The notes under the pieces: model-generated
Seen by the model: only the letters and a program-made list of their open reading frames with translations
Database searches by the model: none
Told to the model about the DNA's origin: nothing
Assembly (NCBI GenBank): GCA_036172245.1
Contig: JAYWIR010000029.1
Location: 1,798,001-1,862,000, forward strand
Source: Raillietiella orientalis
Taxonomy: Eukaryota
Length of the DNA stretch: 64,000 nt
Direction: 5' to 3'
Program-made: the position numbers and the translations under genes
In this document: piece by piece, positions 25,291-51,234 of the stretch
How positions within the stretch are numbered: the first letter of the stretch is position 1
Layout of the letters: each line of letters opens with the position of its first letter

Positions 25291-25299
25291 ATCAGCTCC

Positions 25300-26734
25300 T
25301 TGGACCGCCTCCAGATCGCCCTCAGGGACAAAGGGAGGCCCCGAGTCTGCCTAAAAAAATTGCGTACTCTGCGCCGGGACGGCGACCTAGGACTCCTGAT
25401 GCTGGAGAGAATGGAGCTGCAGACCCAGTTTCCAATAATTGCCCTCGTGGCAAACCTTTGGAGAACCACCTGGTGCCAATCCGCACGCCTTCTGGTCCAG
25501 CAAGCCACCGGCAGCGTGAGACTCTCATCCTTCCTTGCGCGCGCTCCACGCAGTCTCATTCACTGCAGACTGCACCTTTGGCAGGTGGCCACGCTGGCCA
25601 GGAAAAACGGATGCATCTCGTGCCGCCCCGCGAACGGTAATCCTGGTTGCAGGAAACCGTTCGCACGTGGGCGAGAATCCAGGAGCCAAGCGCGGAACAT
25701 GTGCGACGTTTCCTGTACGAGCGTAACAACAACTGCACTCTCCGAGATATCCTAGAAGATCCCGTGAAGAGCGCGGGGGCAGACAGAACCTCACTAGCCG
25801 CCGCGCTGCCCTCTCTTAGGGAACACATGGGCAGCAACGTCGCGGCTAGATGGGAGGTTACTGTGGAAACCTCCGGAGGAGTAAAGGACTGGGCGAGTGG
25901 ACGACCGGCCAGTTCACCGACGCTGCGACCCCGAGTGCTCGGCCTCGTAGACTTTTGCGCTGGAACATGTTACTGGGAATTCTGCACGAAGACTCGCAGT
26001 GGCCCTCGGTGCTCGGCTCGCACCCTCCCCTTAAAGTGGCAAAAGTTGTTGTTGCTGCACTGGGGCCTCCCGTGCAACGCCCGCCGGCATCAGTGGACAC
26101 GGAAGGGAGGGAGGGACCCGAACTGTGCAAGGTGAGGGTAGCGCAAATCCCTCCCGCACCTCTTAGTGGAGCGTATTGCGCTCCGGACCCTGTGAGAACG
26201 CTTTGCTGCGACCCTTGGAACCCCAGAGGCAATGCCAGAGATGTTTGAAAGTGCCTCTTCCTGCGCGACACCCTCACGCCGGCAGCATCCCTAGCAGCAC
26301 TTTGCTGCCTACGCGGCGGGACCATGGCTGCATGGAGCAGCAACGCCAGAGGAGATCAGAACGACAGGGACACCATCTATTTTTCTGTCCTCTTCATGAG
26401 GACAGCGTCAAGATGGCCCCATCTGGGAACCATAAAACAGGAACTTGCCGGCATCCTTACAAGGATGCAGAGGACACCCTCCGGCACACAGTGATCCGTT
26501 CCCGAACCCCCCCCCCCCCATTGTTTTTTTTACTGTATGTTTTTCGTTTTATTTTTTTCATTTTGTTTGTCTCCCCTTCCCCTGTGCTGCCGAGGCGACC
26601 CCGCTGGCCTGCGGGCCAGTTCCCAGTAGGTTTCTTCTCGCGGTTATGAGTAGCGTTGCAGGATCAGATGTCCTGCCACAGATATGTATGTTTATTTTTT
26701 ATATTTGTTTATAATCCGACGTGACTGGGTGTCA
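25300..26734 (+). mobile_element. L1: decayed 3' 1.4 kb of an L1/Tx1-like non-LTR retrotransposon (post-RT region, zf-RVT-like motif, 3'UTR, terminal hairpin)
   Basis: Frameshifted peptides LQIALRDKGRP...GDLGLL and KWQKLLLLHWGLPCNARRHQW...DPNCAR*G*RKSLPHLL. Homologous to 38.7-40.3 kb. Ends GTGACTGGGTGTCA. Confidence 0.8.
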
Positions 26735-26900
26735 ACCAGTACCGCCGCAGCTGAAGTCTGTGATCCAGCCAGAATCATATTGTGAAGGGGCACTCGAACT
26801 CAGGATGCACCCGTTTCTCTGGAGTCGATCCTCGACTTGGGGATTCGAACCCCGCAACGCTTGGTACACAATGCGAGAAGACTTGGGCCACGTGGTCCTT
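26735..26900 (+). mobile_element. Repeat H copy H2, 3' part (resumes at the target site after L1)
   Basis: ACCAGTACCGC...CGAACTCAGGATGCACC...TTCGAACCCCGCAACGCTTGGT aligns with the reverse complement of H6 (48040-48189). Confidence 0.72.
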
Positions 26901-29900
26901 CCAATACGGGCTCCTGCTGCTTGCCTTGGGCCCGCGTGGGGCATCTCCAGTTCAAGGTAGCTACCCCGTCCCTATTCAGACAGCCGTAAACGAAAGTAAT
27001 GCGCCTGCTCACGCAGCCCCACGAAAAGTGAAGGGCATATCCGGGAAAGGGAAGCAGGAAAAATGGCCTTGAAACATCCCAGCCATGTTATCCGGGGGTA
27101 GTTTGCAGGGAAGTCAGGTCAGCTGAGGAAGGAGAAGAAGATGCCGGTGGTGAGCAATCGCTCGTGCATCGTGGGCGCTTTCGAGACCGGCAGAGTGGCG
27201 AACGCTCATCTCCATCAACTCGTCGTCTACACCGACACCGAACAGCATCCTTTCCAGGAGACGGATGGTCCTCGAATTACCACACTTCTTCGTCAGTAGG
27301 AATTTGGAATGGGACTCATAGACGTTGAACTCTTCAAGACTTTTTGCTTATCTTGCTTCCCTTCTTGCTTGTGATCGAAGCGTCTAGCACTCCAGTTCTT
27401 GCATTTTGTTCCGCTTTTGAGTAGCAGCCACAGAAACGTCCTCTCACGTAGGATCTGTCATGCAAGATGCTTCCCCTTGGTACCTGTAAAGCATACGAGC
27501 AGTTAGTTTCTCCCGACAAGATACTCCGAGACAGAAGATAGACAGAAGTGGAACCTGGAGACCAGTCCGGAATGGAGAAGCGCGCAGCTTCCTTGCCCCC
27601 CTCAGCATCCTCTGCTTCCATGCCGTCTGCTCTCGTCCGTAGTTCACGCAGTTTCTGAGATCCGCACGTTGCGGACCGAGCTGTCATCTCATCAGCTTAA
27701 ATCCAGGAGTAGCAGAATCTCGAGTTGAACGGATCGCTTCGAGACGAACTGTGATTCTGGTTTGAATCCCCCCATTGACTTGGAGACCCAGCTCCTTTCG
27801 CCTCCCGTGGATGCGTTTCAATAGAGTCTTCATCTGAAGGTCTCTCTTGCCCATTCCTCGCTGATTCGCTCCCATTGTGCGTTGAATTCGCACTTCGTCG
27901 TTAGCTCCTTTCTTGCTGTCACCTTGCGCATTCTGTATCCTGGAGGAGCAGAAACTACCGGGTTGGACGAACAGGATTGCTTGTAGAATGCCAGAAATTG
28001 GAGACGTTCAAATGCATAATTCCAATTTTCTACTTGCACGCGCAGCCTTGGACCCCTTCCTCAGTTGTAATGAGGTGCGAACAAGAAAAAGTAGGCCTTA
28101 GATCTTACGAAGCAGATCCCGCGAGCAGTTTTCTATCTTAGCCTTCCTTACCGAACTCAGTTATTCTTTAAGGAGTGAGGCAGCAGCCACGCAGAGACAG
28201 CAGCTCGTTAGAGAAGTACCAACAAAGAGATTCCTAATTCCTATTTAGAGATTTCTATCCTAAGAGATTCGCAAAAGGTGCAAGTTGAAAATTAGAAACA
28301 GTGGTATGAGCAGCTGGCTGCCTCTCAAAATGGACGAACAGGCAGAATATGCTAATGTGAGGCGAAGGAAATAGGAGAAGCGACGAAGCACTACTAAGGA
28401 GCTCTTCGCTTACGGCTAACCGCCATCTCGATGCAGCAGTCGGGGCCACTGAAAATTTCCTGGACTTTCCCCTTGGAAGCGGGCAAGAATGAAGGGAAAG
28501 GAGGAAAGGAAGCTAAAGAGCCGAGACATAGGTTGACAGCCTTAGCTTCAGGTGCCCAGAGTGAATTCTGAAGCTGTGGGGACGGAGAGAATCAGGTCCA
28601 CAAGGAAAGAAACTCGTGCAGGAAGACTGGAGACTGGATCCACGGTTGGTCGTAGGAAATAGAGCTGGTGAGAGAGAGCAAGGATGGTGGGGAGAGACTC
28701 GTGGCGGATAACGAGGAAATCTCACCTCCTTGGGATAGAACCTTTGCCAGCTGTAGCCAGGAGCCGCCTTTCCAAAAAGCTCAATTGAAGAAAGGGAGGA
28801 TTTGATCCGATCCCGAGTACCTTTCTCCGTGTCGATGAGCAAGTGGGAAACCTGGAAGCCACAGGATTAAGTGTGACGGCATGACTGCTTCTCTTGCTTC
28901 TCTAGGATCCAAATTCACCGAACATAGTTGGAGTCAGCACTGCCATTTGAAAATTTCGAGACGGGACTGTCAAGACGCAAGCCATTGGTGTATCAGAGGA
29001 AAGTGGAATATATGGCGAAAGTACGGGGTGTTGGAATTTGCCACGCACGAAATGCAAAAGAGCAAATCGGTAGTGAAGACAAGTACAAAAGATTGGAGGA
29101 TCCACCTAGAAAGGACGAAACTCGAAGGTGGGTACGCAGCAAGACAAAAAAAGAATTTTACGGAAGCAGATGAGCAGATTCGAGAATTCTGCGATTCATG
29201 GGTCGGTTAATCAAATCGTCTCGTAGAGGAGCCTACAAGAGAAGGAAGGAATGGTGGATTGAGTAGCAAAGTCATCATTCTAGCTATGGGAACAAGTGGA
29301 TCAGTCACTCACACCTAATAGTCTCTTGGAACTGAAGGGTCAGAGGAAAGGGATTCCTGGGTAGATACTTTGGAGGGGATTTTCGTGGCGATACCAGCAA
29401 AAAAGAAGGCGAAGCAAGAAACCCTAAACTCCGGAGAAAATGGGTATGGAAAGAAGCTATTTTGTGTAACTTGTCATTGAAAGGGAAAACCTAGTTTTTC
29501 CCTGTCGTTAGCCAAAGGCATCATCTGGTTTGAAAAAGCATAAGACGCGTTACGAGAAGAGGGTGAGAAAGATCCCCTTGAACAGAGGACGGACTTTTCT
29601 TCCATTTTACCGTCGCTCTCTCATAGCAGAAGATGACCGGCGAGGAGACAACTGTCAAGCCGGAGGTGAACATCCTGGAGAGCAGGTCGCTGGAAGTTGG
29701 ACTGCTTTTTCGATGCACGTCAGGCCTCACTGCTTCCTGGAGCATTCCAAAAGCACAAGTGAGATAAAGCCTCCCTGAAGACGCGTTTCCATGAGTACGT
29801 TTTTCTTTCCGGAAGTGGTTCATGAAAGATGATGATCAGATGCAAGGTGGCGATGTGCTGACAGTCGAAAGGAAGGACTCCGTGAGCCGATCTGGAATCC

Positions 29901-32900
29901 CAGGATGTCCGAATTTTCTTGGGAAATTTCACCTTGGAGACCCTGAGCAGTTTCCGGGTAGTCTCTTCGCCCTCAGTTGTGAGGTGGGCTCGGTATCTTC
30001 CTCGATTCAGCAAATTGCCTCCCACACTGCAGCAGGGAATTGTGATCACCGTGAGGTCGATCCACCTCACTCCTGTTTATCCATCGGTCCTCCTTCCTCC
30101 CCAGCAGGTTCGAACCCTTTGGACTTGCTTGGGGACGGCAGACGATGACCCTTCCTTAAAGCGTACATTTTTTCAATGAGTCCATTTTAAACGAACCGCT
30201 CTGCGTGCCAATGTGTGATTTCGAAGAGCACCGGTTGCTTCTCCACGGAATCCGAAGTGCGCATAAAAGGCCGACAGGTTTTGGCATGCGCAGAATGACG
30301 TGACACGACAACGGCCGCATGAGCGTAGTAGCCGCTTTCGTGAGGTTTGGAAATCAGGCTAGGAGCGAGCGTTTCCTGACCATGCACAGACATCAGGAGC
30401 TCAGATATCAGGAGCTCAGCATGCGGTGGCATGTGCTCTCAACAGAACGCCGAATCGTTTATGTTCAGAAGGCGTCACGCGTATCGGATGCTGAGAGTTT
30501 GAATAGATCAGTCAAAATTCATCACGAAGAACGTACAAAGTTGACTGGCCTTACTTTGCGTGAGCTTCAGGGACCGCAGGCGACCGCCACAGTGTGTTTG
30601 AAACAGCCTCAAAAAATCAGCGCACATTGAGCACGTGTCTGCAAGGACAGCAAAGTGAAAAGGCTCCAGAATGCCATTTCCTCTGAGATCGATGCTTTTT
30701 CAGAGGAGAGCACTGTCGACCACACCAAGCGACCTCGGGCAGAAAAGGGCTGTGATTTCAGTCGCAAGTCGGAAGTTCTGCTAATGGAAATCTGGCCTTC
30801 CTTTTCTGCAACAGCCCCCCGGACACCTCCGTGTTTTCGCTCCATGGAAGCTGGAATTTCTGCTGTTTTTGCACTGTGCAATCAACATTCCAGTGCAATC
30901 AGCGCAGCCACCTGGTTTGCCTTAAGGTGCGGGGGAGATGGAATCGTTCTTGCACCTTCTGTTGGACCCGCCCGGGAGACATGTGGTGGTGACTCGCTTC
31001 GGCGCTCCGTCATCCGCAGGACTTGCTGTAGCGCTTCTTCACTCAATGCGGACTGAGGACAGGCTCTGTAATTGCAGCGATCTGTTGCATCCGCTCCATA
31101 GTGACAGTCCGCTCCGTGATGGAGTCTCGTTTGTAGCGATGGGAGGCCACCAGCGTAGCAACTGCCTTGATGAGGACGGCTCAGAAGTGGCCTCACCTGC
31201 AAGAGGAAGTCTCCAGGGTGATTGCCGAGATTGCCATCATTCAGCATCAGCTCTAGGAAGGAAGGAATGTTTGATACCTAAGACCTCCGTTCCTACCCTC
31301 TCATCTTTTCTTATTATTTATTGTCCCTTCCTTCTGTTCCTTGCTTTTTAGAATCCAGCCTGTGTGCCGGTGGTCATCCCCAACGGATTTTTTTTTCTCT
31401 GGCATCTTTTGCATTGGGGTCTTTAGACCTGGTCCTTAACATGAAAAGAAGGATACGAATTTAATGAGAACTTCAAGGTGGAACGCTTCCGATTACTGGT
31501 ATCCCTGCACCTGAGTGCTCTTTGATGAAGGCAGGAAACGACAATCCACTCCCTCAAGAACAATTGCTTCCTTAATTAAGAATCTGCGCAGCAATTTCTC
31601 CAGCACAATTCAATCACTCATGCTCCCTCGTTTGCGGAACAGCAAGACGTCTCAGAGAGCAAGGACGTCAAAAGGAAGACCTGCATTGGAAGGCAGAAGA
31701 GAGGATACTGCCGGCAACACACTCTTCTCCAGAGGAAGAAAAGCAGTTTGTTTCGCCGACGACCTTTTTGATGGTCGAGCTGGAACGTGTCCATGACAGG
31801 TGTCCCAATCTCGGTGTCCCAAAGCATCACAAGCCATCGAAATGCCAGCTGGAACCATTGGCGGCGTTTTTCGACAACTCACAGTCTGAAAAATCTTCAA
31901 CTAGTGAGGGTACCCCCAGAGGACAACCATGGTGACGTAGCTAGTTTCGGTGGATTTCACTCGAAGAACAGTGGCTCGTAATGTGTACTTTTGGTTCCTT
32001 GGAATCGCGACTTAAAGTCAAATCATGAAGCTTAAGAGTGATTGATCAGTCACTCAAGAATGCTTCCGTTTGAAAGTGAATTGATGAACCGATATTCTGA
32101 AATCAACAAGGGTGGATACGATAGTACCCCATCTATACCTTGATTGGTGGGCTGATTTGGGGGGGGGGGCGGTCTCGCAGTAACAGCAAGCCGTGACGCC
32201 CTGATCAGAAAAGAACCAAAAAACAATTAAGGTGGCCATGAAATCAGAATGAAAAAGATGAGAACCAACACCAGAAACGAAAATTATCCCAGAAGATTTC
32301 ATCATGCCGTGTTCATGATGGAAATTTTGCAATTTGCACGGCAGGCATGGGGAAAAGTTCAGGGGAAAAAAAAAGGAGCTCAGTGCATGTAAACAACGAA
32401 AGGCAAAGAACTTATTGGCCTGAGACCTAGGAGCTGGGAAACCTGGTAGGCTATGGAAGCAAGCTGGTAGGATGCAGTCGCTTGTGAGAACACGGTTTTG
32501 TTTCCTGGGCATCACAGCCATACGGCCGCCAACGCACCGTGTGTCTGTCTTGCAGTTCTTGAAGGCAAGGAAGGTCGTCTTCTGGATACCGGAGGATCGA
32601 GCAAGGGATCCTTCAGAAGCCTGAACAAGGGAAAAGAAAGTGGATGGGAACGAGAGACTGCGGCAGACTCCGGCTGCTCCAGCCCAATCTCTCCACTGAG
32701 TGAATCTCCCATCTTTGGTGATCCTCGCAGCAGTCTTTCACTATCTTGTGACCTATTTCTTGCGATCTCGCCACTGCTACGGTTTCTTTGCTGAGACTCC
32801 AGGACCGTGAGCTGATAGAGTGATGGCAGCGACGACTAGACTGGCTCAGCAATTGCAGGGCTCGAGAAGGAATTCCCGGTCGCTTTGAGACCGGCTAAGA

Positions 32901-33799
32901 AAGGTCGCCTCCAGGGATTCTTCGAACGCCTCACGAAATTTCATGTGATGCTTTTGAAAGGTGTTGCTGGACCAGGGAAAGGTTTTCCTGGACGCCTCCT
33001 CTCTTCATCGACGCGGCTTCCCAGTCACAAGAGGGTTCCCTCCTGAGCTCAGTCGCACCACTGTAAGAAAAGCCTGGTTACCTCCAGAAGGAATCTGAAC
33101 CCCAGAGCGTTGGCACCTTAATGTTACCGCTCACCCTTGATGTCAGGTCTTCCCGGACACGTGACTCCGATGCACGGATACGGTCTGTTCAGTTTCTCTG
33201 CCTTCCTTCTTCCTGCCAGTGCTTCAAGGAAGTTCATAGCCCACAAACGGCTGAGCTTTGGTTGTCCCTTTGTGGACAGCCACAAATCCAGGAAGGCAGA
33301 TGGGCCTTCCCGCATCGCAGCTGCTTCCTCCGGTTTCTTCTTTTCTTCCCTGTCCGGTACGTGCTCCGAGGGTCTCTGGGAGAATTTGCGTGCCACTCCG
33401 AAGCTATTGCTTGCGATCCCTGATAGAATGCTCCTCTCAGGAATAAAAGACTAGCTGCTTTTCCTCTCAGGAACTAGAACACAGTCGAGGGAGCCTTTAC
33501 TATCAGCTCCTACAAGCTTCTTCCTGAATGCAGGGAGCAGATCTTCTCCGATTCTCGAGTGCGGCTCGTTCATCAGGGACACAGCGCCGGATGTTGTCGT
33601 GGCGTCCCTAGAAACGGCTGCCTCGCTTCGGTGATTCTCTTCTTCCATGTACTCCTCCTGCCTTTGGACTTTCTCTCCGCGGTCCCTTTGAATTGCTTCC
33701 AGCACCCTCGTTTTTTCCTCTGGGATCCCATCCACTCCCTCGTACCCTTCCCCGAGCCAGTCCGCTACGAATCCTCAGGGTTCCTCGGAAACCGTAAGG

Positions 33800-34990
33800 C
33801 GCACAAACTGCACCCGCGTCGGCAATCGCGTGGCTGCGGTTTCCGCGCGTGGCACCAAGTGTTGTGGGTTTGGATCCCTCCCGGGGAAGGGTCGATGCAG
33901 AGAAAGAAGGGTGCATCGCGGGTTTCGATCCCCCCCCCCCCTCGCGCGATGACACTGGTTGTCCTGTTGGCCTACAGGCTTCGGGTGCGGCATTGGTTGA
34001 CGCCCGGTCATGCCGAGGTTTTATTTATAAAATAAACATAAACGTCTGTGGCAGGACGTTTGACCCTGCCACGTCACTTATAACCACTCTCCCACACAAA
34101 TGACTCCACGAATAACCACGAGGAACCTGCTGGGAACTGGCACGCAGGCCAGCAGGATTCGCCTCGGCAGCACAGGGAAAGGGGAGACAAACAAAAGAAA
34201 AAAATAAAACAAAAAACATACATTCAAAGAATGGGAAGGGGGGTTTAAGAAGGGATCACTGTGTGCTCGAGGGCGTCTTCTGCATCCCTGTAAGGATGCT
34301 GGAAAGTTCCTGTTTTAGGACTTCTAGATGGGGCCATCTTGACGCTATCCTCATGAAGAGGTGCGGCATTGGTGGAGGCCAGATGCTCCCGTTGAGTGGC
34401 CGGGACTGTAAGTCGACCTTCCGGGGTCCTTTTAGGAATCAAGAAGCCTTTCGGGGGGTTTTCCTCCGGTTGCGGAAATGAAGCCGCACCATGAAGCTGG
34501 TTGATGACGTCTCCCCCTTCCCTCGGGGGTGCACTGCTCCCTTCAGGGAGCACCTCTCAGAGAAATCGGAAAGCGTCCCCTCGGGGTTCTCTTTAGAGGA
34601 GGAGGGAGCGAGGAGCCGATCCTTTCCGGAGGTCCTTCCGGAGAGGAAACAAGGAGTGGTTCCCTTCAGAGAGAATGAGGAAGAGGGGCTCTCCCTTCGG
34701 GGTTCCCTCCGAAGGCAACCGGGGCGAGGGTTCTCTCCGGGATTCCCTACTAAGAGTAAGAGAGGAACGGGCTCCTTCCTGGATTCAGAGGGTGGCTCCC
34801 TCCCGGGGTGCCCCTCAACTTGAAGAGTCCACTATACGCGCCCTCGAGTGGTGTGGAATCGTGCTGAAGAGCTTGGTAAACCCCTAGGCGAGAATGGTTC
34901 TTGAGTACTTGGCGAACCAAAAAAAAAAACGGAAACCCTAAAAAAAAAAAAAAATCTGGAAGGAAGACAGAGAAACAGAAAAGAAAGTGC
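33800..34990 (-). mobile_element. Repeat H copy H3, interrupted by L2; ORF1-like sequence probably continues to ~33450 or further
   Basis: 34360-34990 and 33800-33997 are collinear with uninterrupted H1 and H6. A degenerate knuckle-like stretch, TWCHA(C)GNRSHAIAD, lies near 33820-33865. Confidence 0.75.
33998..34359 (-). mobile_element. L2: 362-bp 5'-truncated LINE 3' end with a perfect 14-bp target-site duplication
   Basis: GGTGCGGCATTGGT at 33984-33997 and 34360-34373. The body matches L1 26390-26734. No poly(A) tail. Confidence 0.88.
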
Positions 34991-37184: not shown

Positions 37185-37760
37185 CTAGGACCCGGTTCCC
37201 TTCGGGGTTTCTCTCCGATTGTGCGAGTGGAGCCGTACCATGGAGATGGTTGGTACCTCTCCAGAATGTCAGAAGCGCGCTGCTCCCGTCGGGAAGTGGA
37301 CCCTTCAGAGAAATTGCGAAGCGTCCCTTCGGGGTTCTCTTCAGAGGAGGAATCATGAAACGGATCCTTCGGAGAAGAAATAATCGAGCGGTCTCCTCCA
37401 AGGGATCCCTCTGGTGAGAATAAGAAGAGGTTCCTTCGTGGGTTCCTTTCGGAGACAACCAGGGCGAGGGTTCCCTTCATGGTTCCCTAACAAGCGTAGG
37501 AGGAAAGGACTCCTCCGAAGCCCTTCTCGGATTCATAGGATGTCCCTCCGAAAGTTCTCTCGGAGAGAGATGACAGACACTCTCGAGTGCCATGGATAGC
37601 ATTAAAAAGACTTTAGCTTAGGTTAGGTTAAGTTCGGTTCTCTCGCAGGTTCCCTTCGGAGACAACCAGAGAGAGGCGAGCAGCTCTTCAGCACTTGGCG
37701 AACCAAAAAACAGAAAAGAAAAGAAAAGCTGGAAGGAAAGTAGAGAAAACAGAAGAACTG
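37185..37760 (-). mobile_element. Repeat H copy H4 (truncated before the target site)
   Basis: AGCGTCCCTTCGGGGTTCTCTT, CAACCAGGGCGAGGGTTC and ACTTGGCGAACCAAAAAA...CTGGAAGGAA are shared with H3. Confidence 0.75.
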
Positions 37761-38730
37761 CAAGTGAGTCTTCCTTCTTCCCTACCAACTTTTGAGGATT
37801 TTTTTTTCTGCCGCCGAGCTAGAAGAATTCGTTTCCTTGCAGCAAGTGGAATGTTCACCCCGCATCTTCCCCTATGAGAAATAGCTCCGGGATAAGTGCG
37901 TCGCCGGATCACTGAGGCACCTCTTACGTAGGCGAGCATCTGGAAAGCATCAGGATGGATGAAAGCCCTCTTCTGTCTCAGTCACCTCGCCCAGCTCTCC
38001 AGTGGTCAAAAACGAGCGGCTGTCCCCGTGAGATTCCATGCCGTTTAGAGGAGGAGGAGCAGCACCTTGCTTCACGAGGCCCCCTTCGCTCTCCATCTGT
38101 CGTTGTGGATCACTAGCAGGAAGGTCGTCTCCGTTCTTCTTGTCTCCCTCGTCGGTCACTCGGAGAAACAAACGAACGCACCAGAGGGAGGGTTAAGGGT
38201 CTCGGACGAGAGGGTGGGATCCGTAACAGCCAAGCATCGCTCGGAACCTTCTAGTGGATCCTTTCCTTAGCATCTGCAAATCACTTGACCATCCTTTTCG
38301 TTTCCTGGGGAACACGCTGTCCCCCTTCTGCTGCCAAGAATTGGAATCTGACACGGCCGATAAGCAGGAGAGCCTCTTCTAAGGAAGACTTCTCCTCTGC
38401 GTGCTCTGAGATCAGTACGCCACGTACGACACTTCAGCTCCCGAATGAACTCCAACGAGTCCGAGGTTTCTCAGGTCGATTACCTTCCCTAAGTCTAACT
38501 TTCAATAACGGAAGGGACAATGAGGAATGGGAGAGAGGCCCCGTTTCTTTCCTTCCTGTCCTTCTTCGCCAAGGTCTCAGACAAACAAGCCACAATTCTT
38601 CTTTGAACGATATTCTCAGCTTGCCTCTCGGAAGCACAGGACTGAATACAGAGGATGGTTCCCTTCCCTGTCTTCCCTGATGCATTCTCTTTACCTCCGG
38701 AAGAGAATGGCAGCAGCCAACTAGAGATAG

Positions 38731-40267
38731 ATGTCCACTTGCACTACCATAGGAATGAAGTTCGTGCCCCCCACCCTCTTCCGCCCCCTGCTTTTTGTTT
38801 GCTCAACATCGAAAAATATAAAGAGGCGGACGAAGGACCTCCTGAGAATCGCCCTGTGGGCACAGGGAGGTCCCGATTCCGCTCTGAAGGACTTGTGTGC
38901 TCCGTGTGATGGCGGAGGCTTCATCTCCCTGACTCCGAAGCACCTGGAGCGGCAGTTTCCGTGGAGGACATCTGCCCTAGTAGCGAAGCTTTGGAGCACT
39001 AACTGGTACGAGCCCGCACTATACCTGGTCAAGCGAGCCACCGGCTACGCGGGACTGTCTTCGTTCCTGGCACGGCGGCGCAAATGCAACGTGTCCAGCT
39101 GCGGACTGGAGCTCTGGCGGGTGGCCAAGCTGACCAAGACTAGCAACTGGATCTTCTGCCAGCCCGCGAACGGTAGTGCCTGGAGGCAGGAAACCGTTCG
39201 CACGTGGGTCAAGAACAGCGAAGCGAGTCTGGAGATGCGGCAGCGACTGCGACATTTCTTCTAGAACAAGCGCTCTTCTACAGGACCTCATCCTGCAGCC
39301 CACCACGCGTGCGTGGGCAGACAGGACCTCCCTAGTCACGGCACTGCCCTCCCTCAGGGAGCACCTGGACAGTAACCAGCTTGCCAAATGGGAGGTCTGT
39401 TGCGAAGTCAGTCAGAAGACGAGGGAACTAGGTGGTTGGACCACGGGCCAGCTCACGGACGCTGCGATCCCAAGTGTCCCACCGAATTGCGCTGGGGTGA
39501 GCTGCTGGGAATCCCGCAGGAAGGTCTCGGGTGGCAGGCCCAGCGCTGAAGAACAACCGGGCTCTCCCCCCTAAGTGGCAGGAGTCGGCACTTCTGCTGT
39601 TGCACTGGGGTCTCTCGTGCAACGTCCGCCGGTCTCACTGGACCCGGGTGGCTGTGGACCCGAACCGTTGCAGGTGCGGGGAACGGAAATCTCAGCTCTC
39701 GCACCTGCTTGTATACTATGTTGCCCTCTGGCCCCTGTGATTGCGTTACGCAACGGTCCTTGGTGCACCGACGGACAATCCCAGGGACGTGACGAAGTGC
39801 CTCTTCGTGCGCGATGCCCAGTAGCTCTTTGCTGCTGTCGCAAAGAGCTTCTCGGCCTTTTGGCTAAGATCAAACTACCTACGTGGGATTGTGGTGGCCT
39901 GGAGCTACGCAAGAGGAGGACGGCGCGATAGGGACGTCATCTGTTTCGCCTTGCTCTTCCTGTGGACGGCAGCAAGATGGCCCCACCTGGGGCATACTCG
40001 GATGGAACTTGCCGGTATCCTGGAAAGGATGCAGAGGACGCCCTCCAGTGGACAATGATATCTTCCCGTGCCCCACAGAGTTTTTTGTATTATTGCTTTT
40101 ATTTATTTTTATTTTTGTTTTCCCCTTCCCCCTCCACTGCCGAGGCGAACCTCGCTGGCCTGCGTGCCGGTTACTCGGCAGATTCCGAGCATTTTCGGAC
40201 AATGTAGGGCCGATGGCCGTTCTCATGTTTATTTTCTATAATGAACGCCCGAGGGATAGGCGTGACC
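38731..40267 (+). mobile_element. L3: decayed 3' 1.5 kb of the same LINE family
   Basis: LRIALWAQGG...LCAPCDGGG (L1/Tx1 post-RT P..GGLG-like motif), QETVRTW, DRTSLVTALPSLREH, KWQESALLLLHWGLSCNVRRSHW...DPNRCRCGERKSQLSHLL; same 3'UTR as L1. Confidence 0.82.
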
Positions 40268-43200
40268 AACGCCTCCTCAGTAGTTGGATGACGAGCCAGA
40301 TGGATGACATAGACTGTGGGCCGGAAGATTGCTACGTAGGGAGGACCTGAAGGGTTTCATCTAAGAGGATGTCGTGGTCTTTCTTCTGTGCAAGGTCAGC
40401 CTCGTTCTGCAGTCTCCGCACTCTTTCTCTGCACTCAACAGACGATGGATCCACAAGACTTTTACTGCACTGGAAGACCACGCACAACAGGCGCCTTGAT
40501 CTCATCACGGGTATGTGGAAGATTCTTCCCTAGACAACTACTCAGGGTACTTCTTTGTTCAAGATGGATACCTTGACTGGACTCTGCATTCACCATCATA
40601 TGCTGCTCTCGTGCAAGGGACAGTTCGTTGACTTGAGTTAGAGCCACGCCAGCCATACGATGCTCCTCCTGACCATTCTCCTGCTACGGGAGGCGAAGAC
40701 AGAAGACATCTCTCCTCTCCTCGGAAAGGACTGAGAGTCGCAAGGATCGGCGCTGGTGGTCCTCGCCCCAATTCTCTTCTACCCATCCATTTTGCTTGTA
40801 TATTTTCCCCTTTTTCTCTGTCACTCCAGACCTGTCTCTCCAGACCAGCCACACGTAGAACAGTATCCTTCCTGTTGCAAAGATCCTGGTGGGAACTCAT
40901 TTCCTACTTTATGTCTTTGTTTTTTCATGGGGAAATGAATGTTCCAAGGTAGCTGGCCAGGAAGTGAAGCTCTTTTCCTTCTGACGCCTATGCGCAAACA
41001 CTCTAACATCCGTGACCGCACTAACATTCCGAGATCTTCACGCTCGCTCAGAAGGGATGATGGCATCCACGGTATGAGAAAACTTTTGGAAGGCTGAATC
41101 GAGGTTGCCCGCAGAAGATCCAGTCTACCCCTCATTTTAGGGTCCACCACGTTCAGTCGCCTCTCCCTTCTACGTGCTCTCCGTGTACCATGGACCGATG
41201 TCGTGCGTACCCTTCCACGAACCACAGCCTGTCAGTTGCCTGGAAACGAATCTTCGGGCTTAACGGAAAGTACGAGGGGTGCTTTCAAAATTTCCTACCT
41301 TCCTGTTTGATACTTCTCCATGCTTCTCCATGTCCTTGAATTCAGTTCCCACGAGGAAGGGTTACCTCACGGGGATAATTTCAAATCTCCTCAGGAAGGG
41401 ACACCAGGAAGAGATTTAGAAACTCTTCTGATGCCTCCCCGCATTCCCAAGAAAACTTTCTTAGCTGCTTATTGATCCACTGCTTATGTCCTCTGCTCCT
41501 GAAGACTTTCGCCACCTTACCTTCCATTGCTTGCTCTTCCCGTTTTGTTTTGTTTCTTTGACTTGGAAGTTGCTCAGGATTCTAAACAGCAAGAGGAGTG
41601 CATTCGCAACACAACTCTTTTTCTCAGCACCCCCACCCTACGTTGCGGCCACAGAGTCAAACGACACACAGCTAAGGATCCTCACGTAACTGTCTCCTGG
41701 GAGCTTTTCCGGTGCTCCGACGCCATCTTTTCCGGTGGTTTCCGAGTCCTCCGCGGATAGGCTCTCTTCCAAAGATTCACCCTCATGCCGATGGTACGAT
41801 GGACCCGAGCACCGAAGGAAGGAAAAAAAAATCAACACGGTACGTGGAAGAGCCGCTCTGGAATCTGGATCTCGTGCGCTCCTTGAAAGTCCCCTGCGGC
41901 CAAGTACGCCTCCATACCTCCGGCCCGGATAAGACGGCGCTGCTTCTTCGCGTCACCCGATCCTCTTGACGGCATCTCGGATCGATCTTGCCCATCGGAA
42001 CAACGAGCTTCTGCTAACGGATCTGAAGGTGGCCCGACCTTCAAACGAACGAACTGGTCCAGACTCACCGCTGAAAAAAAAGGGTTTGCTGGCACGCGCT
42101 CAAGCTTTGGCACGGATAAGGAACGTCTCCAAGGCAACGAGGGGAAATTCCCGATTGCAGTAGCAAAGCGAATCCAGGGAGGAGAGAGAAAGCGCTGACA
42201 ACAACCAAACGACGATCGTAGACGTGCAGACAGCGAAATGAGATTGGGCGCGAGCCAGCACCGAAACCACGGTGGATGTCTTTCAGCGTCTTGGCCTTCT
42301 TACTCCCCCACGCTCGGGAAAGACATCGCAAAGAATCGCCGCAGAAGATGCTCTGGGCCCAAGGCTCGCTTGCAACCGCCGTAGGTCTCGTTGCTCACGA
42401 GCGGAGGGCGAAGAAACAGTTCAGTCTAGGAGGTGAATGACAAGGAAAGGGTCCATAGGGCTGCCCGTGGATTCACCCGCACCAGTCCCTCCCTCCCTAT
42501 CTCTTGTCCTACCCAGATCTTCGGGAATCACGTTCGTTGATGTGAGGCCGATCCACCCTATTTATTCTCTTTTTTTTTTTTCTGTTGGCGTTCCCTTCGT
42601 CCTACTTCCGTCTCCCCAGAGGAGTTCCTCTCGCATCAGGACGGCATAGGCGGTTTTTGTACAATCGTACAGATGGAAATCCCGGAAATCCAGGGTGAGG
42701 AAGTTGGAGCCCATCGAGGAAACGTTCCTGGTTCCCGCGTCCGCACTCTGGAGACTCTGTGCTCCCAGCAGAGCCCCTGGCAACCGGAATCTCGCGCGCA
42801 GTCAGCCCCAGCCACGAGTCGAAGCGACCGAGCCCGTCCCGGGTCACCGTCGTTCCGGGAGGAAAACTCCGGAAACCGAGAGTGTGTGCTGAGCATCCCA
42901 GCGCGCTTCGTTCGCGCCCGCGCTCCTTCCCACGCGCGGCAGAGACGAGGAAGAATCTCGCGGCCCTTCTGGAGCCGCCGTAAGTCTCGGAGCGCGGAGG
43001 GAGGGGGCGGCAGCGACTTCCCCTCTGAGAGCGGATGAAGGGGCGGTGGGAGTTCCGAGGAGCCACCACCGGAAATTTCCCACCGTGAGTTTTCCTGCGG
43101 AAAGCGGAAGGGGAGGGGCGCCCTCCTCGTCTTCCCCCTCCACTGTAGCAGGCGGACGGAGCGCTGCTGCTTCAAGGACACGCAGAGATGCTGCGTCCGT

Positions 43201-44499
43201 CAGGAAATCCTTCGAGGATGCCGACGATGGCAGCTCCTCGCGCAGGAAACTCTCGACGACTGTCGCTCGGTGCCACTCCGGACGCACGCCCTCCCTTCGC
43301 TTCCCACAGACGGCGAGCGGCGAGGGAGAGGCATCCCGAGGGATCGGACAAGCAGAAACTGGGGATCCCGAGCCACCTTGCGCCTGCGCGCGTCCCCGCT
43401 TCCTTGCTCCGACCGCGCCCCTCTTCCAACATCCTCCAGCTTTCCGAACTTCTACAAAGGACAGATTCTCAATGGAGCATCCGGCAAAGTTGCCTCTGGT
43501 TCGTCCGCGGAAGGACCCCTAAGCTGCGAGCGTTGCTCCGCTTTTCATCAGGAGCAATCTGCAAAAGATCCAGATCCGACTTCCGTTTCACAACTCTTTA
43601 TTGCATCACGGCGATCAATTCCCCTCCTCCTCTGCCTCCTCCTCCTCTTGAAGGAAAATGGAAAAAAAAAAAAAGATAGATGAACCCACAGCAAGATGGG
43701 GAGGAGAAAAAAAAATACTTACGTGGCGCAATCGTTTGACGTATTTGGAATGTCTAATGGCAGGAGGAAGATGGAAAGGACCAAAATAGGAAGAGGCGTA
43801 CACAATGCGGAAGCTCCGGATGCTGGGTGTGACGTGTGTATTTTTCTTTTTTCTTTGCCTTTCGCTAGAGAGGAGCAGGGATGGACGTCCTGAGATTTAC
43901 GCCCGTCACGAGCAACGGACGCACTCGGTCGCGAGCGCGAGGCTATCATGGCGCCACCTACGCCCTCACAGCTGGCTTTCTGCAGAGAAAGCTCGGGAGA
44001 GCGGCCGCCCACCGCGCTGCGATCGCCGCTGCCCTGCTCCCGCCATCCCCGGCAAGCAGGGGAACTTCGTGGCAACGTCAGCACCGCCGTGGGGATTCTC
44101 TCACCGAGTTCCGTGGTCCTCGAAGGATCCTCGATGCTCTGCTAGGGGTCTCCCTCAGTTTCTCCTTCTGCTTCCCACCCTCAGCTCCCCTGGTTCCGGG
44201 AAAGAAGAATGTGGCTTTCCGGAAGGTCCCCTCTCCTTCCTTTCCATGTATCGCCGCCCCCCGAACGCCGGATGGTTCCAAGCAGGCAGCTCCTTGAAAG
44301 TCGGGTTCCCTCCCTCGGGAGCGATGCGAGAGAGTCCAGATCCGCATCTGACGGGTGGGGGAAGGAGGCGACGCGTGCCGGGAAAGGAAAAATTCCCGGG
44401 AGGAGCGGCTCCGGGAAAAACGGAACGCTCGAAAACTCCGAGACGACGGAATCGATCGACTTTTCGGAGAGGGTCCGACCCGACCTCCGTCCCCTAGCG

Positions 44500-44700
44500 G
44501 GAAGGAGGCTCGCGCGACCACCGGAAGAAGCAATTCTTCAAGGTTTAGGGAATGAATGCCTCGGGAGGGGACCACCCTGTGAACTCGGGAAGACTTCGGA
44601 GGAAGGAGTCCGTTCCTCCCTCGCGAGGCTGGGTGGCAACTCCGGAGGGGACCGCCTCTTCCTTGTTCCCTCCGGAGGGGCTCCCTCGAAGCATGTGGTA
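44500..44700 (+). mobile_element. Repeat H copy H5 (short internal fragment)
   Basis: GGGGACCACCCTGTGAACTCGGGAAG...GGAGTCCGTTCCTC matches 25090-25142. Confidence 0.55.
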
Positions 44701-47700
44701 CTGCGGGAGCACCACGGAACAGGTCCCGAGGAACGAACTGGGTGGGGGACGCCCAAATCACCCGTGCGGATCGCTTAGCTTCCGACCTATTTTTCGCATG
44801 GGCTCTCGAGATCTCACGTGGGGGGAGGAGGGGGAGGGAACACGAAGGAAGCCCGTGAAGTTCTCGTCCATCTCTTCGTCTACCTGCCTCCTTCCGGCCG
44901 TGCCCACCACTGTTCGGCTACGCAAGGTCACACGCCCAAACGCGATCGCGCTTCCTCCTTCCTCGCGAACGTTTATCTTCATCTCCCGGGAAACTCTCTC
45001 TGCCTTGATCTGGCGAGTTATGAGTGCTCCGGAAGGACCTTCTGCCATTCCGAAAATACGCGGCTGATGGCTATCTGCCGCCGCGAAAGGCTGCCGGCGG
45101 CGCGCGTTCCCTAGCAGAGCGCCGCCTTCCCCGAGAGTTCCGCAAACGGCAGCGGCAGGTCCCAAAGCCGAGGTCGGAAACCGGGATTTCCGCTCCGCTC
45201 TGACGGTGCCGACTCCGCGAGGAGAGGAAAGGAAACGCGGTTTCAGGACTCTCTCTGCTTTCTTCAGAGCCCGCAACTGCTACCCCCCCTTCCCCCCAGC
45301 ATCTCTACGGGCATCTCCGAGCCGTCCCGGCTCGCTCAGAGAGAGGAACAGGAGCGGCATTTTTTTCCCTGGAGTGTCGGCAGGAACTGGCGCACGCCCC
45401 GTGGGAGCATCGCGAGGTGAAACCACAGGAACGCTCCTCATGAGTGCTCCCAGCCCAAGGAGCGGCGGCAGCGTCACCTCCGCGACTCTCCCACGCCCTT
45501 AGAGACGGAGCTGAGGCCATTCTCCAGAGCAAGACGAACGGCGCTCTCCCCCGTTTGCGAGGAGGAGACTCGGGGACCTGGGAGTTCTCTGGGAGTGGTC
45601 CCAGAGAACGAATAGGTCCCTCATTCGGTTAAGCGGTCTCCCGTCCCTCGCCTCGAAAGGCAAGTGCAGGTTCGTGATTTTCCCTCTTTGCGAAAGGAAT
45701 CAGCTTCCCTTGAACATGAAACGCATGACCATTGAGAGATGACAGCATCCCGCGAGGGCGTGACCACTTCTTTGTTTCGGGAGGGTACCGATCTTTTGGC
45801 TAAGATCAAAGTGTTACCTGGATGAGGAGAACGTGAGGGCGCCGCGCCGACGTGGTCCACCAGACGCCATCTACAAGACGCCTTCCACTGGCCAGCCGTG
45901 CGAACGTGCGGCGCAACGTTCCCCGCCAGTACGCGCTGCGCTCGCGCGCCCCACGTTCCCTTCTTCAACGCACACTCACGACCGCGTTTCACGCGACGGG
46001 AACGCTCACTCCTATCTTTTGTCTGACCGTCTTCACCGGCAACCCTCGGCCAAGTCTTCCTCCTCCTCGTTTCTTCGCTCTCTTGCACTTGAGGACCACC
46101 GAACCTGAGCTGACGCTACGTCCTCGACGATGCTGGGGTTCCTACGTGGAAGCGAACAAGGAAAAACATCCCTTTAGTAGGCTGGATTTCTCAGAGACAG
46201 GACAGGACAGCCTGAGAGCTCCTCAGACTCTCCGCACGAAAAGTTGACCCTCTCCCGGTCTCCAGGAAAAACACGAGGTATGCCAGCGAAGGTCGGTTTT
46301 GGATAAAAACCTGGGAAACAATCCGGTTTCCGAATCCTCCAACAGATACGTGAAGCGAAGGATTGCGTTTCCAGGGAAGGATTTCCACCTCATCCCTGGG
46401 GATGTCACGTGCACGACAGCTGTGCGGAAGCCTAACTTGTGTGACTCAACGGAAGTCGCGCAAGTTATCAGTTGGCCTTCAGAGAACTCCCTTGCTCCGG
46501 GAAAGGCTGATAAGGAAGAACAGGAACAGTAGATGGTGCTCTGGGCGCGCTCAGTCGGGCCGCTGGAAGTCGGTTTTCCCCTTCTGTGAACACGCGGAAG
46601 ACACGGAGGCGGCCGCTGATTTCCTCATCACGAAGTGTGCAATATCCCGGGACCATCTTCCCACGATGTCCGTGCCTGCGATTCCCCCCCTCTCCCCAGT
46701 TTGCACTGCCTCCGCGAGGAAGAGCTGACTCGGTTTCGTCGTCGTCTCCAGCTTCCTTTTTCTTGCGTGCGTTGCGTCTGTTGGCTCGCCTACTCTGCCC
46801 TGACTGTGTCGGTACTGCGTGGTCCACCTTGTGGTGGCAGAAGCGTGCCTGGGTCGCCCTCCGAAAGGTCGCAGCCTGCCGTGCTATCGGCGTGATGTTG
46901 AAGATTGCCTGGAGGCAAGTCGAATCTGGCACGTCCACATTTCTCGCAGCATTCTCACCGAGATGGTTCTTCCACGAAGCTACAGAAGCAATTACTTTAT
47001 GCTTCAGGAAAACTCCCTGGTAACCATTTCGCGACCTTCGATTGCTCCGCCTCCTATAGCCTTCTGGCTTCCGCTACTGCTTCCGCTTCTCAGCTACCTT
47101 TTTTTTCTTCTTCTTTTCTTTTTTTCGATCGGTGTAATCCTCAATACGCGGAAGGCTCCGGGATGAAGTCGCGAGCATGTCTTCTGGATCGAGTTCTGTC
47201 TACCTTGCAGGCGCCATTCTGCGTGATGGACGGACAAGAACCCCTTGGAAGAAGGGATCTGGGTCCTCGAATTGGACTTTCATTGTCGTTCGAGAGGACA
47301 TGACCAATACTGGACCCCTCTTCCTAGATCCAGCCTAACAGATGGGTCCCTGAGTTGCCCCTTTCAACAATCCTCACAAGAAGGGGGAAGTCGAAGGACG
47401 AGTCCAAACACAATCCTCCATCCCCACGCTGTCTTGAACCCCCATGGTCTCCTTCTCTAGGTTGCGACCGCGTGACGTTGCACCCAACCTCAGCATGGAA
47501 AACCTGAAAAAAACTCATTCATCTCAGCTCTGAATCACCCACTTCAAAAAAAAAAAAAAACCTTTTACATTCGTAACTGCAGGAGTCGCCCTACCTTCAA
47601 GGGGAAACGCAATGCACAAAAAAAAATGAACCTTCGAAACCCTTTTTAACACCCGGGACGACCACTTCAGGACCCAGGGGTCTTTCTGTCACCCGTCGAG

Positions 47701-48029
47701 AGAGTTCCGGCATCCGCCCATTCCTTTCAAGCTCAGTCGCCGAGGTGAGGGTCAACTTCTAACGAACAAGTCTCCTCACTCGATCCCACATCCAGAAGAT
47801 TCTTTTCTATCGGAAAATTCAGTCCCTCTCCAACAGTCGAGTTTCCGGCATCGACCCTCTGGACGCGAGAAAGGAAAGCCCACGCCGCCTGTTGGAAATG
47901 AAGCGGATTGCCTCGGGACACAAAGCTTCCCTCAGGAGAGACCCTTCCATACGAATAATCCACTCCCTCGTCTCCTGGATCTCGCTCAAGTTTATGACCT
48001 TCGCGGGACTTCTCTGACTCTTGCCCTCG

Positions 48030-48770
48030 TGGGAGGCCATGTGGTCATAGTCTCCGCCCCACGTGACACCAAGTGTTGCAGGTTCGAATACTCGGAAAGA
48101 ATCGACACCGAAAGATGTGGGGTGCATCCTGGGTTCGGGCTCCTCCCGCAAGATGACGCTGGTAATCCTGCATTCGGTGCGGTACTGGTAGCTGGAAAAC
48201 CGGATGCTCCGATGAGTGGCCGGGATTGGGAGTTGACCCTCCAGGATTCTCCCAGAAAACGGAATCAGGGAGTCCAGTTCCCTACGGGGGAACTCCGTTG
48301 TGCGAAGGAGACGTCCCTCCCTGGGGGAGACCCTCCATCTCGTACCATGGAGCTGGTGGATTGATGATACTCCTCCAGAGTGCAAGAAACGCGCTGCCTC
48401 CTTTGAGGATCTCCCTTTAGAGAAAATCCGGAAGCATCCTTCCGGGGTTCTCTTCAGAGCAGGAAACAAGGAGTGGATCCTTTCCGAGTTCCTTTCGGAG
48501 AAGAAATGAGGAAGAGATTCCCTTCGGGGTCCCCTCCCAGGCGTCAGAGGAACAAAATCCTTTCTACGGAGCCCTTTCTGGACTCATAGGGTGGTCCCAT
48601 CTTGAAGAGTTAACCCGCACCCTCGGATAACGTGGAGCAGTGTGAGCCGACAGAACTGAGTGAGCCACTGCCAGGCGCGCGACGGTTCTTGAGGTACTTC
48701 TGCGGACCAAAAAAAAGGAAACTCGAAAAGAAAAAAAAAGAGCTAAGAGAAGGAGAACAGCGAAGACAGG
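48030..48770 (-). mobile_element. Repeat H copy H6 with an empty target site at 48176-48189
   Basis: Collinear with H1 and H3: CAAGATGACGCTGG, GATGAGTGGCCGGGA, CCATGGAGCTGGT, CTTGAAGAGTT, GGTTCTTGAG, A-rich end. Confidence 0.75.
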
Positions 48771-48829
48771 ATTTAAAATGATTTTCATCATCCTAGGCCA
48801 TGCTGCATAGCAGCAAAGAAGAAACTTCT

Positions 48830-49385
48830 GGGGGCGTGGACAACTCGGGAAGTGACGGCGACCCCGAGTGTCCCACCCCACGGACTTGTATGCTGGGAAG
48901 AGCTGCTGGGCATCCCTCCGCAGGATCCGAAGTGGCCCCCAGCATGCTGGAGCAGCGGCTCCCTCCCCCCCTCAAGTGGCAGCAGTTGGCGTTGCTGCTG
49001 CTGCATCAGGGGAATCCCATGTAAAGCGCGCCTACACCACTGGACCCTGGGGAGTGTGGGGTAAGGGAAACCCTCTCGTACCTGCGAGGGGCTCACATCG
49101 GGTCAACAGGAACTTGCCGGCATTGTTACAAGGATGCAAAGGACTCTCTCCAGCACGCAGTGATCTCTTCCCGAACCTCCCCATCTTTTGACTGTATGAT
49201 TTTTGTTTCATTTTTTTTCTTTTTGCTTGTCTCGCCTTCCTCTGTGCTGCCAAAGAGAACCTCCCTGTCCTGCGTGCCGGTTCTCTGAACGTTCCTTTTT
49301 GTAACTTGGCAGGACCCTTGGTCTTGCCACTGACTTGTATGTTTATTTTTTTACAAATAAACGCCCCGGCGCCACCAGGTGACAA
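48830..49385 (+). mobile_element. L4: internally deleted LINE 3' fragment
   Basis: LPPPLKWQQLALLLLHQGNP, then a jump to AACAGGAACTTGCCGGCAT and the 3'UTR GTATGTTTATTTTTT..AATAAACGCCC. Confidence 0.78.
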
Positions 49386-50514
49386 ACCAAGGCCGAAAAG
49401 AAGGTCTTGAGGCGTCCAACCGCCAGGCAGGGGTCCGAAATCTTGGACTTCGACCAGGAAGCCGTAAGCTCATCTTCCGTCGCTTCACCGCGCCGTAAGG
49501 TCGGCCGGAAGTCGAAGACTCCCCGGAAGCACGACCCCTCTGGAGAAGAAGTACAGGGGAAGAAAAAGAAGGGGTTAAGGAGATAGAAAGGGTCTAGTAG
49601 AAAAGGACTATGGAGAAGGGATACAGCCGGTCTCCGGAATCGAGGCAGCCATGAGCGTGGGAACGCGGGACTCCTCAACGGAGAAAGTCCCGCGCTCCGA
49701 TGCCGAGGGAAAGGAGACCAAGGGGACCGCTGAGGCGTTCCTGGCTCCCAATCCCCCTGAAGACTATCCGTCCCCTGCGCGGAAGGGTGCCCCTTTGCCA
49801 GTTTCCCAAGAATAAATCCCGGGCTCATCTCGCCGCCGGCTACGCCTGGTCCGTTGGAACGCCAACGGGCTGCGCAACGGCGGCAAGAGACGGGACGTAG
49901 CCTCCACTCTGCGAGACTTCGATTTGGTGCTGTTGCAGATCCACGTGATCTCCGCTCAGGAAGCCCAGGAAATCGAGAGAATCGCCAGTGGTAGGCTGCT
50001 CTCGATAGCTGCTGGTAGGCCCCTCGCAGTCCTCAGGATCAGGGGCGCGGCTAGAGGCAGTGCGGCACCACGCACGAAGACGCATTTCCAAATGTCCCTG
50101 GGGCCGCCTTCCGGGGTTCTTTGCCGCGTCCGCGAAAGCGTGACAGCCTGGAACGCGAGAGGAGACCGGAATGGCCGGCACGCCGTCCACTGGGCGCGGA
50201 TCTTCCTGAGGATCCCCTCGAGATGGTCCCACCTGGGCGAGACGCGGACAGAACTTGCCGGATCCTGCCTGAACAGGATGCAGAGGACACCTGGTAGCGT
50301 ATCGCGATCCCTTCCTCGGTTCCCCACCCCCTTCCCCGTTTTGTTTGTTTATTTTTTGTTTTTTTCCCCTCCCTCCTCGCTGCCGAAGCGGACCTCGTCG
50401 GTCTGCGTGTCGCTCTTCGGCAGGTTCATTGCACGTGGTAGAACCAACGGTTCTACCATACAAATACAATGTTATTATTTCATATAATAAATGCTCCGGC
50501 ATAACCAGCTGATA
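49386..50514 (+). mobile_element. L5: LINE copy with putative ORF1 remnant, APE endonuclease N-terminus (~49838-50030) fused by a large deletion to the ORF2 C-terminus and 3'UTR
   Basis: RLRLVRWNANGLRNGGKRRDVASTLRDFDLVLLQIH fits the APE start motif (xWNxNGL...KR...D...LQE/xH). Followed by WARIFLRIPSRWSHLG and the shared 3'UTR. Confidence 0.75.
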
Positions 50515-50806
50515 ATCATCCTAAGGTAATGATACCCCTATAACTTCGCTACTGGCCTTGAAAAAAAGAAAGAAACGCGCGCGAACGCTTTGGCTACTCT
50601 GTGCTGCGAAAATAGCGCGAAGATGTAACTTTATTTTTTTTGGAGCCAGGGGTGGGCGCCCTTGGCTGGTACGTGCTCATTCCTGTTGGGGCGGGTGGAC
50701 TCCACCTCCTGCATTGAGGGTCCGCTTGTCGTCCGGGACGCGGAACGGGCTGATGGATGACTCGCATTTTTTTCTCGAGTCCGAAGGGCCAACTCGTGGG
50801 GAAGGG

Positions 50807-51186: not shown

Positions 51187-51234
51187 AACACGTGTGGAAG
51201 GGCGGGCAGCACAACGGGACCAGCCATGCGTTTT

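Follow-up and report, generated by a model that had tools for sequence, protein, structure and literature searches.

The DNA analysed here is a 64,000-nucleotide window of contig JAYWIR010000029.1 (assembly GCA_036172245.1, forward-strand positions 1,798,001 to 1,862,000). Self-comparison, followed by profile (nhmmer) searches with one model for each family, revealed, in the 22-52 kb part of this window, two families of repeats, which we term L and H (Table 1). Family L comprises seven copies, each with its own 5′ end and all with a single common 3′ end, and is supported as a family of non-LTR (long terminal repeat) retrotransposons, also called long interspersed nuclear elements (LINEs). Family H is a dispersed repeat of ~650-750 bp, the copies of which are just 64-68% alike over their length. 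Copies L1 and L2 interrupt two different H copies, and the junctions of the family point to a preference for a short target motif.

Table 1. Copies of families L and H in the window, with the target-site duplication of copy L2.
Feature	Position	Strand	Description
L1	25303-26734	+	1432 bp, 5′-truncated; L model 80-1548 (nhmmer)
L2	33998-34359	-	362 bp, 5′-truncated, within H3; L model 1210-1548 (nhmmer)
L2 target-site duplication, 3′ copy	33984-33997	-	ACCAATGCCGCACC (L-sense)
L2 target-site duplication, 5′ copy	34360-34373	-	ACCAATGCCGCACC (L-sense), 14/14 match
L3	38756-40264	+	Longest and most diverged L copy (nhmmer)
L4	48816-49385	+	Internal deletion; L model 663-965 plus 1162-1548
L5	50807-51186	-	380 bp, 5′-truncated (nhmmer)
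L6	51239-51288	-	50-bp piece of the L 3′ end (nhmmer E 0.0018)
L7	50050-50514	+	Body 50136-50514, L model 1144-1545; inverted 5′ piece
H1	22859-23521	+	Empty site ACCGGCCCCGCACC at 23007-23020, minus strand; pairwise BLAST limits
H2, upstream part	25011-25302	+ (L-sense)	H model 203-461, nhmmer E 2.9e-33; abuts L1 5′ end
H2, downstream part	26735-26912	+	H model 714-884, nhmmer E 6e-17; begins with target ACCAGTACCGC right after L1
H3	33843-34989	+ (presumed own sense of H)	Interrupted by L2; nhmmer, pairwise BLAST limits
H4	44532-44686	-	Short fragment without the target, H model 289-415, nhmmer E 7e-15
H5	37190-37781	+	Truncated, H model 102-629 only, without the target-bearing part; nhmmer E 1.4e-56
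H6	48025-48780	+	Empty site ACCAGTACCGCACC at 48176-48189, minus strand; pairwise BLAST limits

The seven L copies start at model positions 2, 80, 663, 1144, 1168, 1210 and 1491. Their shared 3′ terminus consists of an AT-rich stretch followed by ...GACCGGGYGTCA, without poly-A, and in the alignments of the well-preserved copies the final ...GTCA abuts the flank directly, with neither a poly-A nor an A-rich tail. Copy L1, for instance, carries a degenerate C-terminal region of the second open reading frame (ORF2) and a 3′ untranslated region (UTR) of ~450 nt ending in ...GGGTGTCA, again with no poly-A, and its reading frames are interrupted by stops and shifts. Within the last 155 nt, a hairpin formed by GTGGCAGGAC...GTCCTGCCAC is kept across the L copies; four of its 11 predicted pairs show a pair-preserving change on both sides, and the structure may be an RNA feature recognised by the element's protein. 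Copy L7, which the initial annotation had not listed, is preceded 16 bp upstream of its body by an inverted piece on the minus strand (50050-50119, model 1020-1089) that corresponds to the element sequence just upstream of the 5′ end of this copy (model 1144). An inverted 5′ piece of this type is the pattern called twin priming in LINE-1, and the L7 arrangement resembles what that process would be expected to leave.

Three of the seven 5′ ends, together with the point at which L4 restarts after its deletion, fall within 66 model positions (1144-1210; window positions 34359, 50136, 51186 and 49032). This clustering may reflect a strong stop for the reverse transcriptase (RT) or a short non-autonomous derivative of ~370 bp. 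Copies L4, L7, L5 and L6 crowd in both orientations within 2.5 kb (48816-51288), forming a local repeat graveyard in which L5 lies ~40 bp downstream of the L6 end and L4 starts ~35 bp past the end of H6.

Turning to family H, a purine- or A-rich stretch ends H3, H5 and H6 on the plus strand of the window, and H5 lacks the opposite end. These features suggest that H is an old retroposon resembling a short interspersed nuclear element (SINE), whose own sense would be opposite to that of the L copies inserted into it. Neither ARAGORN nor Rfam detected a tRNA or other RNA family in H. B-box-like 11-mers were present once as a perfect match in H2 and once with a single mismatch in H6, and occurred at chance level in the window as a whole (25 found, 22 expected); a derivation of H from a tRNA or another RNA gene thus found no support in these analyses. 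Loosely repeated short units of the GGTTCCCTTCGGAGAGAA type make up the middle of H (23100-23400, 34450-34800, 37200-37550 and 48250-48600), and H copies therefore cross-match out of register.

Protein relatives of family L

Among the 73 ORFs of at least 120 amino acids between 24 and 52 kb, which include the degenerate ORFs of L, no Pfam family was found at E <= 0.01. This holds also for a restriction-like endonuclease signature in the L ORFs of that length, and neither Pfam nor tblastn revealed an RT domain in the window itself. A degenerate reading frame is nevertheless common to copies L1 and L3, whose nucleotide identity amounts to 65.8% across 1385 columns. A profile of this frame, searched against 1.84 billion representative proteins, matched five proteins at E <= 0.001, one of which, P0001, is a true relative; the other four (P0002-P0005) were dropped as low-complexity repeat proteins upon inspection of their sequences. 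P0001 is a protein of 619 amino acids encoded on a 2870-bp metagenome contig. Its residues 125-396 constitute a Pfam RVT_1 domain (E 5e-24), and the region matched by the L profile (residues 460-599, E 4e-46) lies just after this RT. By tblastn, L3 aligns at 38761-39249 with residues 437-597 of P0001 (56% identity), and L1 does so at 25303-25716 with residues 461-601 (48% identity); the L copies of the window are therefore 5′-truncated LINEs that keep the C-terminal region of ORF2 and the 3′ UTR. When 204 proteins, nearly all of them LINE-type relatives of P0001, were compared with the window by tblastn, P0001 alone produced a match.

In the Protein Data Bank, the top solved relative of P0001 was human LINE-1 ORF2p (E ~1e-39, residues 3-397), with R2 proteins scoring far less well (~1e-17 to 1e-11). 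All other relatives of P0001 in a set of 5.8 billion proteins were just 26-30% identical to it. Many of the top-scoring ones combine an apurinic/apyrimidinic endonuclease (APE) domain (PF03372) with RVT_1 and zf-RVT (PF13966), and the best relative carrying PF14529 in place of PF03372 had a far lower score. From the domain architecture of these relatives, we infer that L was an APE-type element of the L1-like group (the group of LINE-1, as distinct from copy L1). Its assignment to the LINEs more broadly is supported by a relative with an RT, by one 3′ end combined with seven 5′ ends, and by target-site duplications of 14 and 16 bp.

Searches beyond the window yielded little else. Genome contigs contained no match to a balanced 23-base L pattern and, when searched with P0001, returned one unrelated RT (26% identity). 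In viral contigs, the L pattern had no matches, P0001 detected no loci, the ORF profile found no relatives among 99 stretches, and a second L pattern retrieved 10 loci, none of them L-like. Finally, none of the at least 119 loci listed by a metagenome scan with a GC-rich 20-base L pattern was homologous to L, H or P0001 (one 37-nt BLAST match).

Insertion junctions and target preference

The initial annotation proposed that a sequence-specific LINE had repeatedly entered one site of a dispersed repeat, with filled and empty sites in the same window, and its description of the junctions held throughout. Copy L2 indeed sits inside H3 between perfect 14-bp repeats, a duplication whose local-alignment score was reached by none of 500 shuffles. 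The last base of copy L1 is 26734; the next 178 bp, which open with the target sequence, match the H model, and both H6 and H1 are continuous across the corresponding position. The two inserted copies differ in length and have the same orientation relative to H. At copy L1 no duplication was detected. The 5′ end of this copy abuts position 461 of the H model and its 3′ end position 714; therefore, H lacks ~240 bp here (model positions 462 to about 705), which fits either an insertion accompanied by a target deletion or a deletion that occurred later.

These data also bear on whether one insertion was merely copied. The 5′ junction of copy L1 lies at L-model position 80 and is associated with the deletion, whereas that of L2 lies at position 1210 and has its own perfect duplication; H sequence flanks both copies on either side. 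Over the 170 nt next to the site, the filled copies H2 and H3 are 74.8% alike, and their similarities to the empty H6 are 79.1% and 80.0%. Copies L1 and L2, by comparison, are 85.8% alike. Of the two families, L is thus the younger, having inserted into separate copies of H. Because the 5′ junctions differ, H is present on both sides and H2 and H3 are no closer to each other than to an empty copy, L1 and L2 represent independent insertions at the same base of two H copies. Amplification of a single insertion would have left a shared 5′ junction and, in the window, the junctions differ.

Beyond L2, a target-site duplication was evident in one further copy, namely L5, which is bordered by 16-bp repeats with two mismatches (14/16; CCCTTCC[A/C]CACG[T/A]GTT at 50791-50806 and 51187-51202; p = 0.006). 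Duplications were hence found in two of the six copies tested and in none of the other four. Both L5 and the two copies L3 and L4 have flanks unrelated to H, even with all nhmmer filters switched off for maximum sensitivity, and altogether five of the seven L copies lie outside H.

The sequences directly 3′ of the L ends read ACCAGTACCG (L1), ACCAATGCCG (L2), ACCAACGCCT (L3, at 40265-40274), ACCAAGGCCG (L4, at 49386-49395), ACCCTTCCCC (L5), AAACGCATG (L6) and ATCATCCTAA (L7), those of L3 and L4 agreeing with the initial annotation. The motif ACCANNNCC[GT] follows four of the seven L ends directly. Both strands of the 64 kb together contain it 17 times (1.3e-4 per position), five of these occurrences being at L junctions; chance does not account for its position after the L ends. 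As a reference independent of the flanks under test, we used the 10-mer of the empty H6 site. Matches to it numbered 6 for L3, 7 for L4, 6 for L5, 3 for L6 and 3 for L7 (10 bases compared; 9 for L6). Given that only 1.7% of the 10-mers in the window have at least 6 matches to the H6 site, the probability of three or more of five copies reaching this level is 4.5e-5. Since three of the five non-H copies do so, the preference of L for a short motif is real.

Does this preference concern H as such? Among 16 distinct motif sites, two of the three in H and two of the 13 elsewhere are filled, a difference that is not significant (hypergeometric P = 0.14, computed by hand). The specificity of L looks motif-level rather than H-level. 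The earlier proposal of a target-specific family hitting a dispersed repeat stands as regards a preference for the motif and an H site that was hit twice, but falls short as regards H itself, given the motif sites of L3 and L4 outside H and the occupancy figures. Its description of the target as a transposon-derived repeat likewise falls short: judging from its ends, H looks more like a SINE-like retroposon. That specificity is not absolute, as the initial annotation had concluded from the different site of L6, fits the flanks of L6 and L7, both of which are unlike the motif.

Proposed insertion mechanism and alternatives

The reading we favour, and hold to be probable, is that L is a now-dead LINE family of the L1-like group that inserted through target-primed reverse transcription and had a preference for a short sequence. 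The element's endonuclease, by inference of the APE type and the presumed source of the site preference, would have nicked the element-sense strand first, immediately 5′ of ACC(A)NNNCC(G/T). Synthesis of complementary DNA would then have started from a fixed RNA 3′ end (...GUCA, no poly-A), the conserved 3′-UTR hairpin probably aiding recognition by the protein of its own RNA. A second nick 14-16 bp downstream would account for the target duplications, and 5′ truncation, 5′ inversion and an occasional target deletion for the varied 5′ junctions. Family H would in this scheme be an older, SINE-like repeat. Because a good match to the motif (ACCAGTACCGCACC) is part of H, different copies of it took insertions at one and the same base (L1 and L2), and motif sites outside H were entered as well (L3 and L4).

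Alternatively, L might be strictly specific for H, its protein reading a stretch of H longer than the 10-bp motif and the copies elsewhere being rare off-target insertions at look-alike sites. Passages of PMC4494074 offer a precedent in Tx1 families inserting preferentially into one transposon family, and in the window, of the four H copies with the site, two are filled; L1 and L2, moreover, whose junctions are the best preserved, both lie in H, with targets agreeing at 9 of the first 11 bases. Yet most L copies are not in H (5/7), a good duplication borders L5, which lies outside H, and the occupancy of motif sites in and outside H (2/3 versus 2/13, P = 0.14) falls short of setting H apart. 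We regard strict H specificity as unlikely, if still the most credible of the competing accounts. A single ancestral insertion of L into H, propagated afterwards within a composite unit, through gene conversion among H copies or through 3′ transduction of H sequence, would explain why both filled copies are hit at the same base and in the same orientation. However, L2 has a perfect duplication of its own, and 1130 model positions separate its 5′ end from the L1 one; the presence of H on both sides of each copy excludes 3′ transduction, and the filled H copies are less alike (74.8%) than the L copies within them (85.8%) and no closer to each other than to the empty H6. This scenario is very hard to credit.

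A third account denies the endonuclease any specificity: the ACC(A) would belong to the element RNA, a few bases of microhomology would suffice for priming, and the double hit in H as well as the CC at +8/+9 would be coincidence or the mark of a local structural hot spot. All seven junctions indeed read GTCA-like and then A.C-like bases, and the 5′ duplication copy of L5 begins with CCC after G, such that the A need not derive from the target. Against this, ACCA or ACCG is already present at this place in the uninterrupted H6 and H1 as well as in the 5′ duplication copy of L2. With ACC left aside, L3 and L4 still share an A at +4, CC at +8/+9 and G/T at +10, for which a hand estimate gives ~7e-4 jointly, and two independent insertions at the same base, with four site-bearing copies in 64 kb, would be very unlikely without a preference. 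We thus consider a lack of specificity improbable, ranking below H specificity and above the spread of a single insertion.

Several points weigh against the favoured mechanism. The leading ACC or ACCA of the flanks is not assignable to target versus element, as the RNA 3′ end could supply ACC(A) via microhomology; the L6 and L7 flanks have only 3 matches each to the reference site (of 9 bases compared for L6 and 10 for L7); and L3, L4 and L7 lack a duplication detectable by the shuffle test (p = 0.88 for L3). The motif was defined partly after inspection of the data, and the sample is one 64-kb window with seven L copies. Moreover, the endonuclease domain of the family was not found, there being no L copy with the N-terminal half and P0001 starting between endonuclease and RT. 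The RT itself is known only from P0001, which is 48-56% identical to the window copies over the shared part, and the scans of genome, viral and metagenome contigs turned up no external copy of L or H.

Setting in the window and comparison with known LINEs

Outside the repeats, the window opens with a 1658-codon open frame on the plus strand (1-4974) that runs off its start and encodes an acidic, Ser/Glu-rich low-complexity protein with no Pfam family. A coccidian source of the DNA is a speculative guess from this protein, and papers on Sarcocystis and Apicomplexa (PMC4337577, PMC9141347) speak neither for nor against it. An ORF on the minus strand (11999-13279) harbors a glycoside hydrolase family 31 (GH31) TIM-barrel domain at residues 262-383 (E 3.6e-11); a protein search returned no relatives of it, and a protein atlas only generic GH31 clusters. 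Tandem duplications are present at 4869-5261 (197 bp x 2, 91% identity) and 10672-10791 (~52 bp x 2, 96% identity). The G+C content, ~60% over 1-26 kb, drops to ~50-57% in the middle with its many repeats and, at the window end, to 35-43%, and just one ORF of at least 120 amino acids is found between 52000 and 64000. For annotation purposes, L and H account for the nesting of repeats seen at 25-51 kb.

Among retrotransposons that carry an endonuclease, sequence-specific LINEs are uncommon, and they attract study as natural systems that write DNA into a chosen site. With its short GC-rich target, its fixed 3′ end and one close relative among 1.84 billion representative proteins, L would be a further, independent case in which to ask how specificity arises in APE-type endonucleases. 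It would also illustrate how, by settling in other repeats, mobile elements keep the harm they do within limits.

Features shared by L and the L1 group include 14-16-bp duplications, 5′ truncation and 5′ inversion, all of which are typical of LINE-1. LINE-1 ORF2p is the best solved match of P0001 (E 1e-39, versus 1e-17 for R2), a ranking by database similarity. L differs from this group in its fixed 3′ end without a poly-A tail and in its GC-rich target motif: the LINE-1 motif is TTTT/AA-like, and the L1 clade sensu stricto has a poly-A or A-rich 3′ tail among its defining features. In addition, its relative P0001 is just 26-30% identical to any other LINE protein. With R2, R1 and other LINEs specific for rDNA or RNA genes, L has in common a precise, poly-A-free 3′ junction and sequence-specific insertion (described for R2 in PMC10499050), but the match of P0001 to R2 proteins is much weaker and confined to the RT core (~1e-17 to 1e-11). 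Moreover, the target of L is not an RNA gene according to Rfam or ARAGORN.

As to target choice, the behaviour of L is of a known kind, because LINEs of the Tx1 clade that target other transposons have been described (passages of PMC4494074). What is new is family L itself, with a single close relative in public proteins, together with its GC-rich motif, its poly-A-free end and its SINE-like target, a statement based on protein and contig searches, as publications, Repbase and Dfam were not compared for L. A bolder reading, which we offer as a doubtful possibility, is that L represents a deep, so far undescribed L1-like branch from a GC-rich, possibly non-animal eukaryote, with a GC-rich recognition sequence of its own of ~10 bp, a hairpin-guided, poly-A-free 3′ end and, as its multicopy safe harbour, an older SINE-like repeat; Tx1-like behaviour would then have arisen independently outside the Tx1 clade.

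Target-specific APE-type LINEs are known from the Tx1 and R1 clades, according to sections of PMC4640811. Portions of PMC4494074 describe the Tx1 clade as found in animals and relate that Xenopus Tx1 (Tx1L) inserts into the piggyBac-type Tx1D, that crocodilian Tx1-Mar families insert into Mariner-N4_AMi, and that other members of the clade enter LTR elements or a position ~300 bp into Harbinger elements. The likeness to L is one of behaviour, i.e. of target preference, and no proof of membership. Whereas the Tx1 targets are DNA or LTR elements, H looks SINE-like, and the preference of L extends to 10-bp motif sites outside H. Common to both, on the evidence of these parts of PMC4494074 and PMC4640811, are a preferred place inside another dispersed mobile element, entered in many independent events, and a proposed role for that place as a safe landing site in multicopy DNA.

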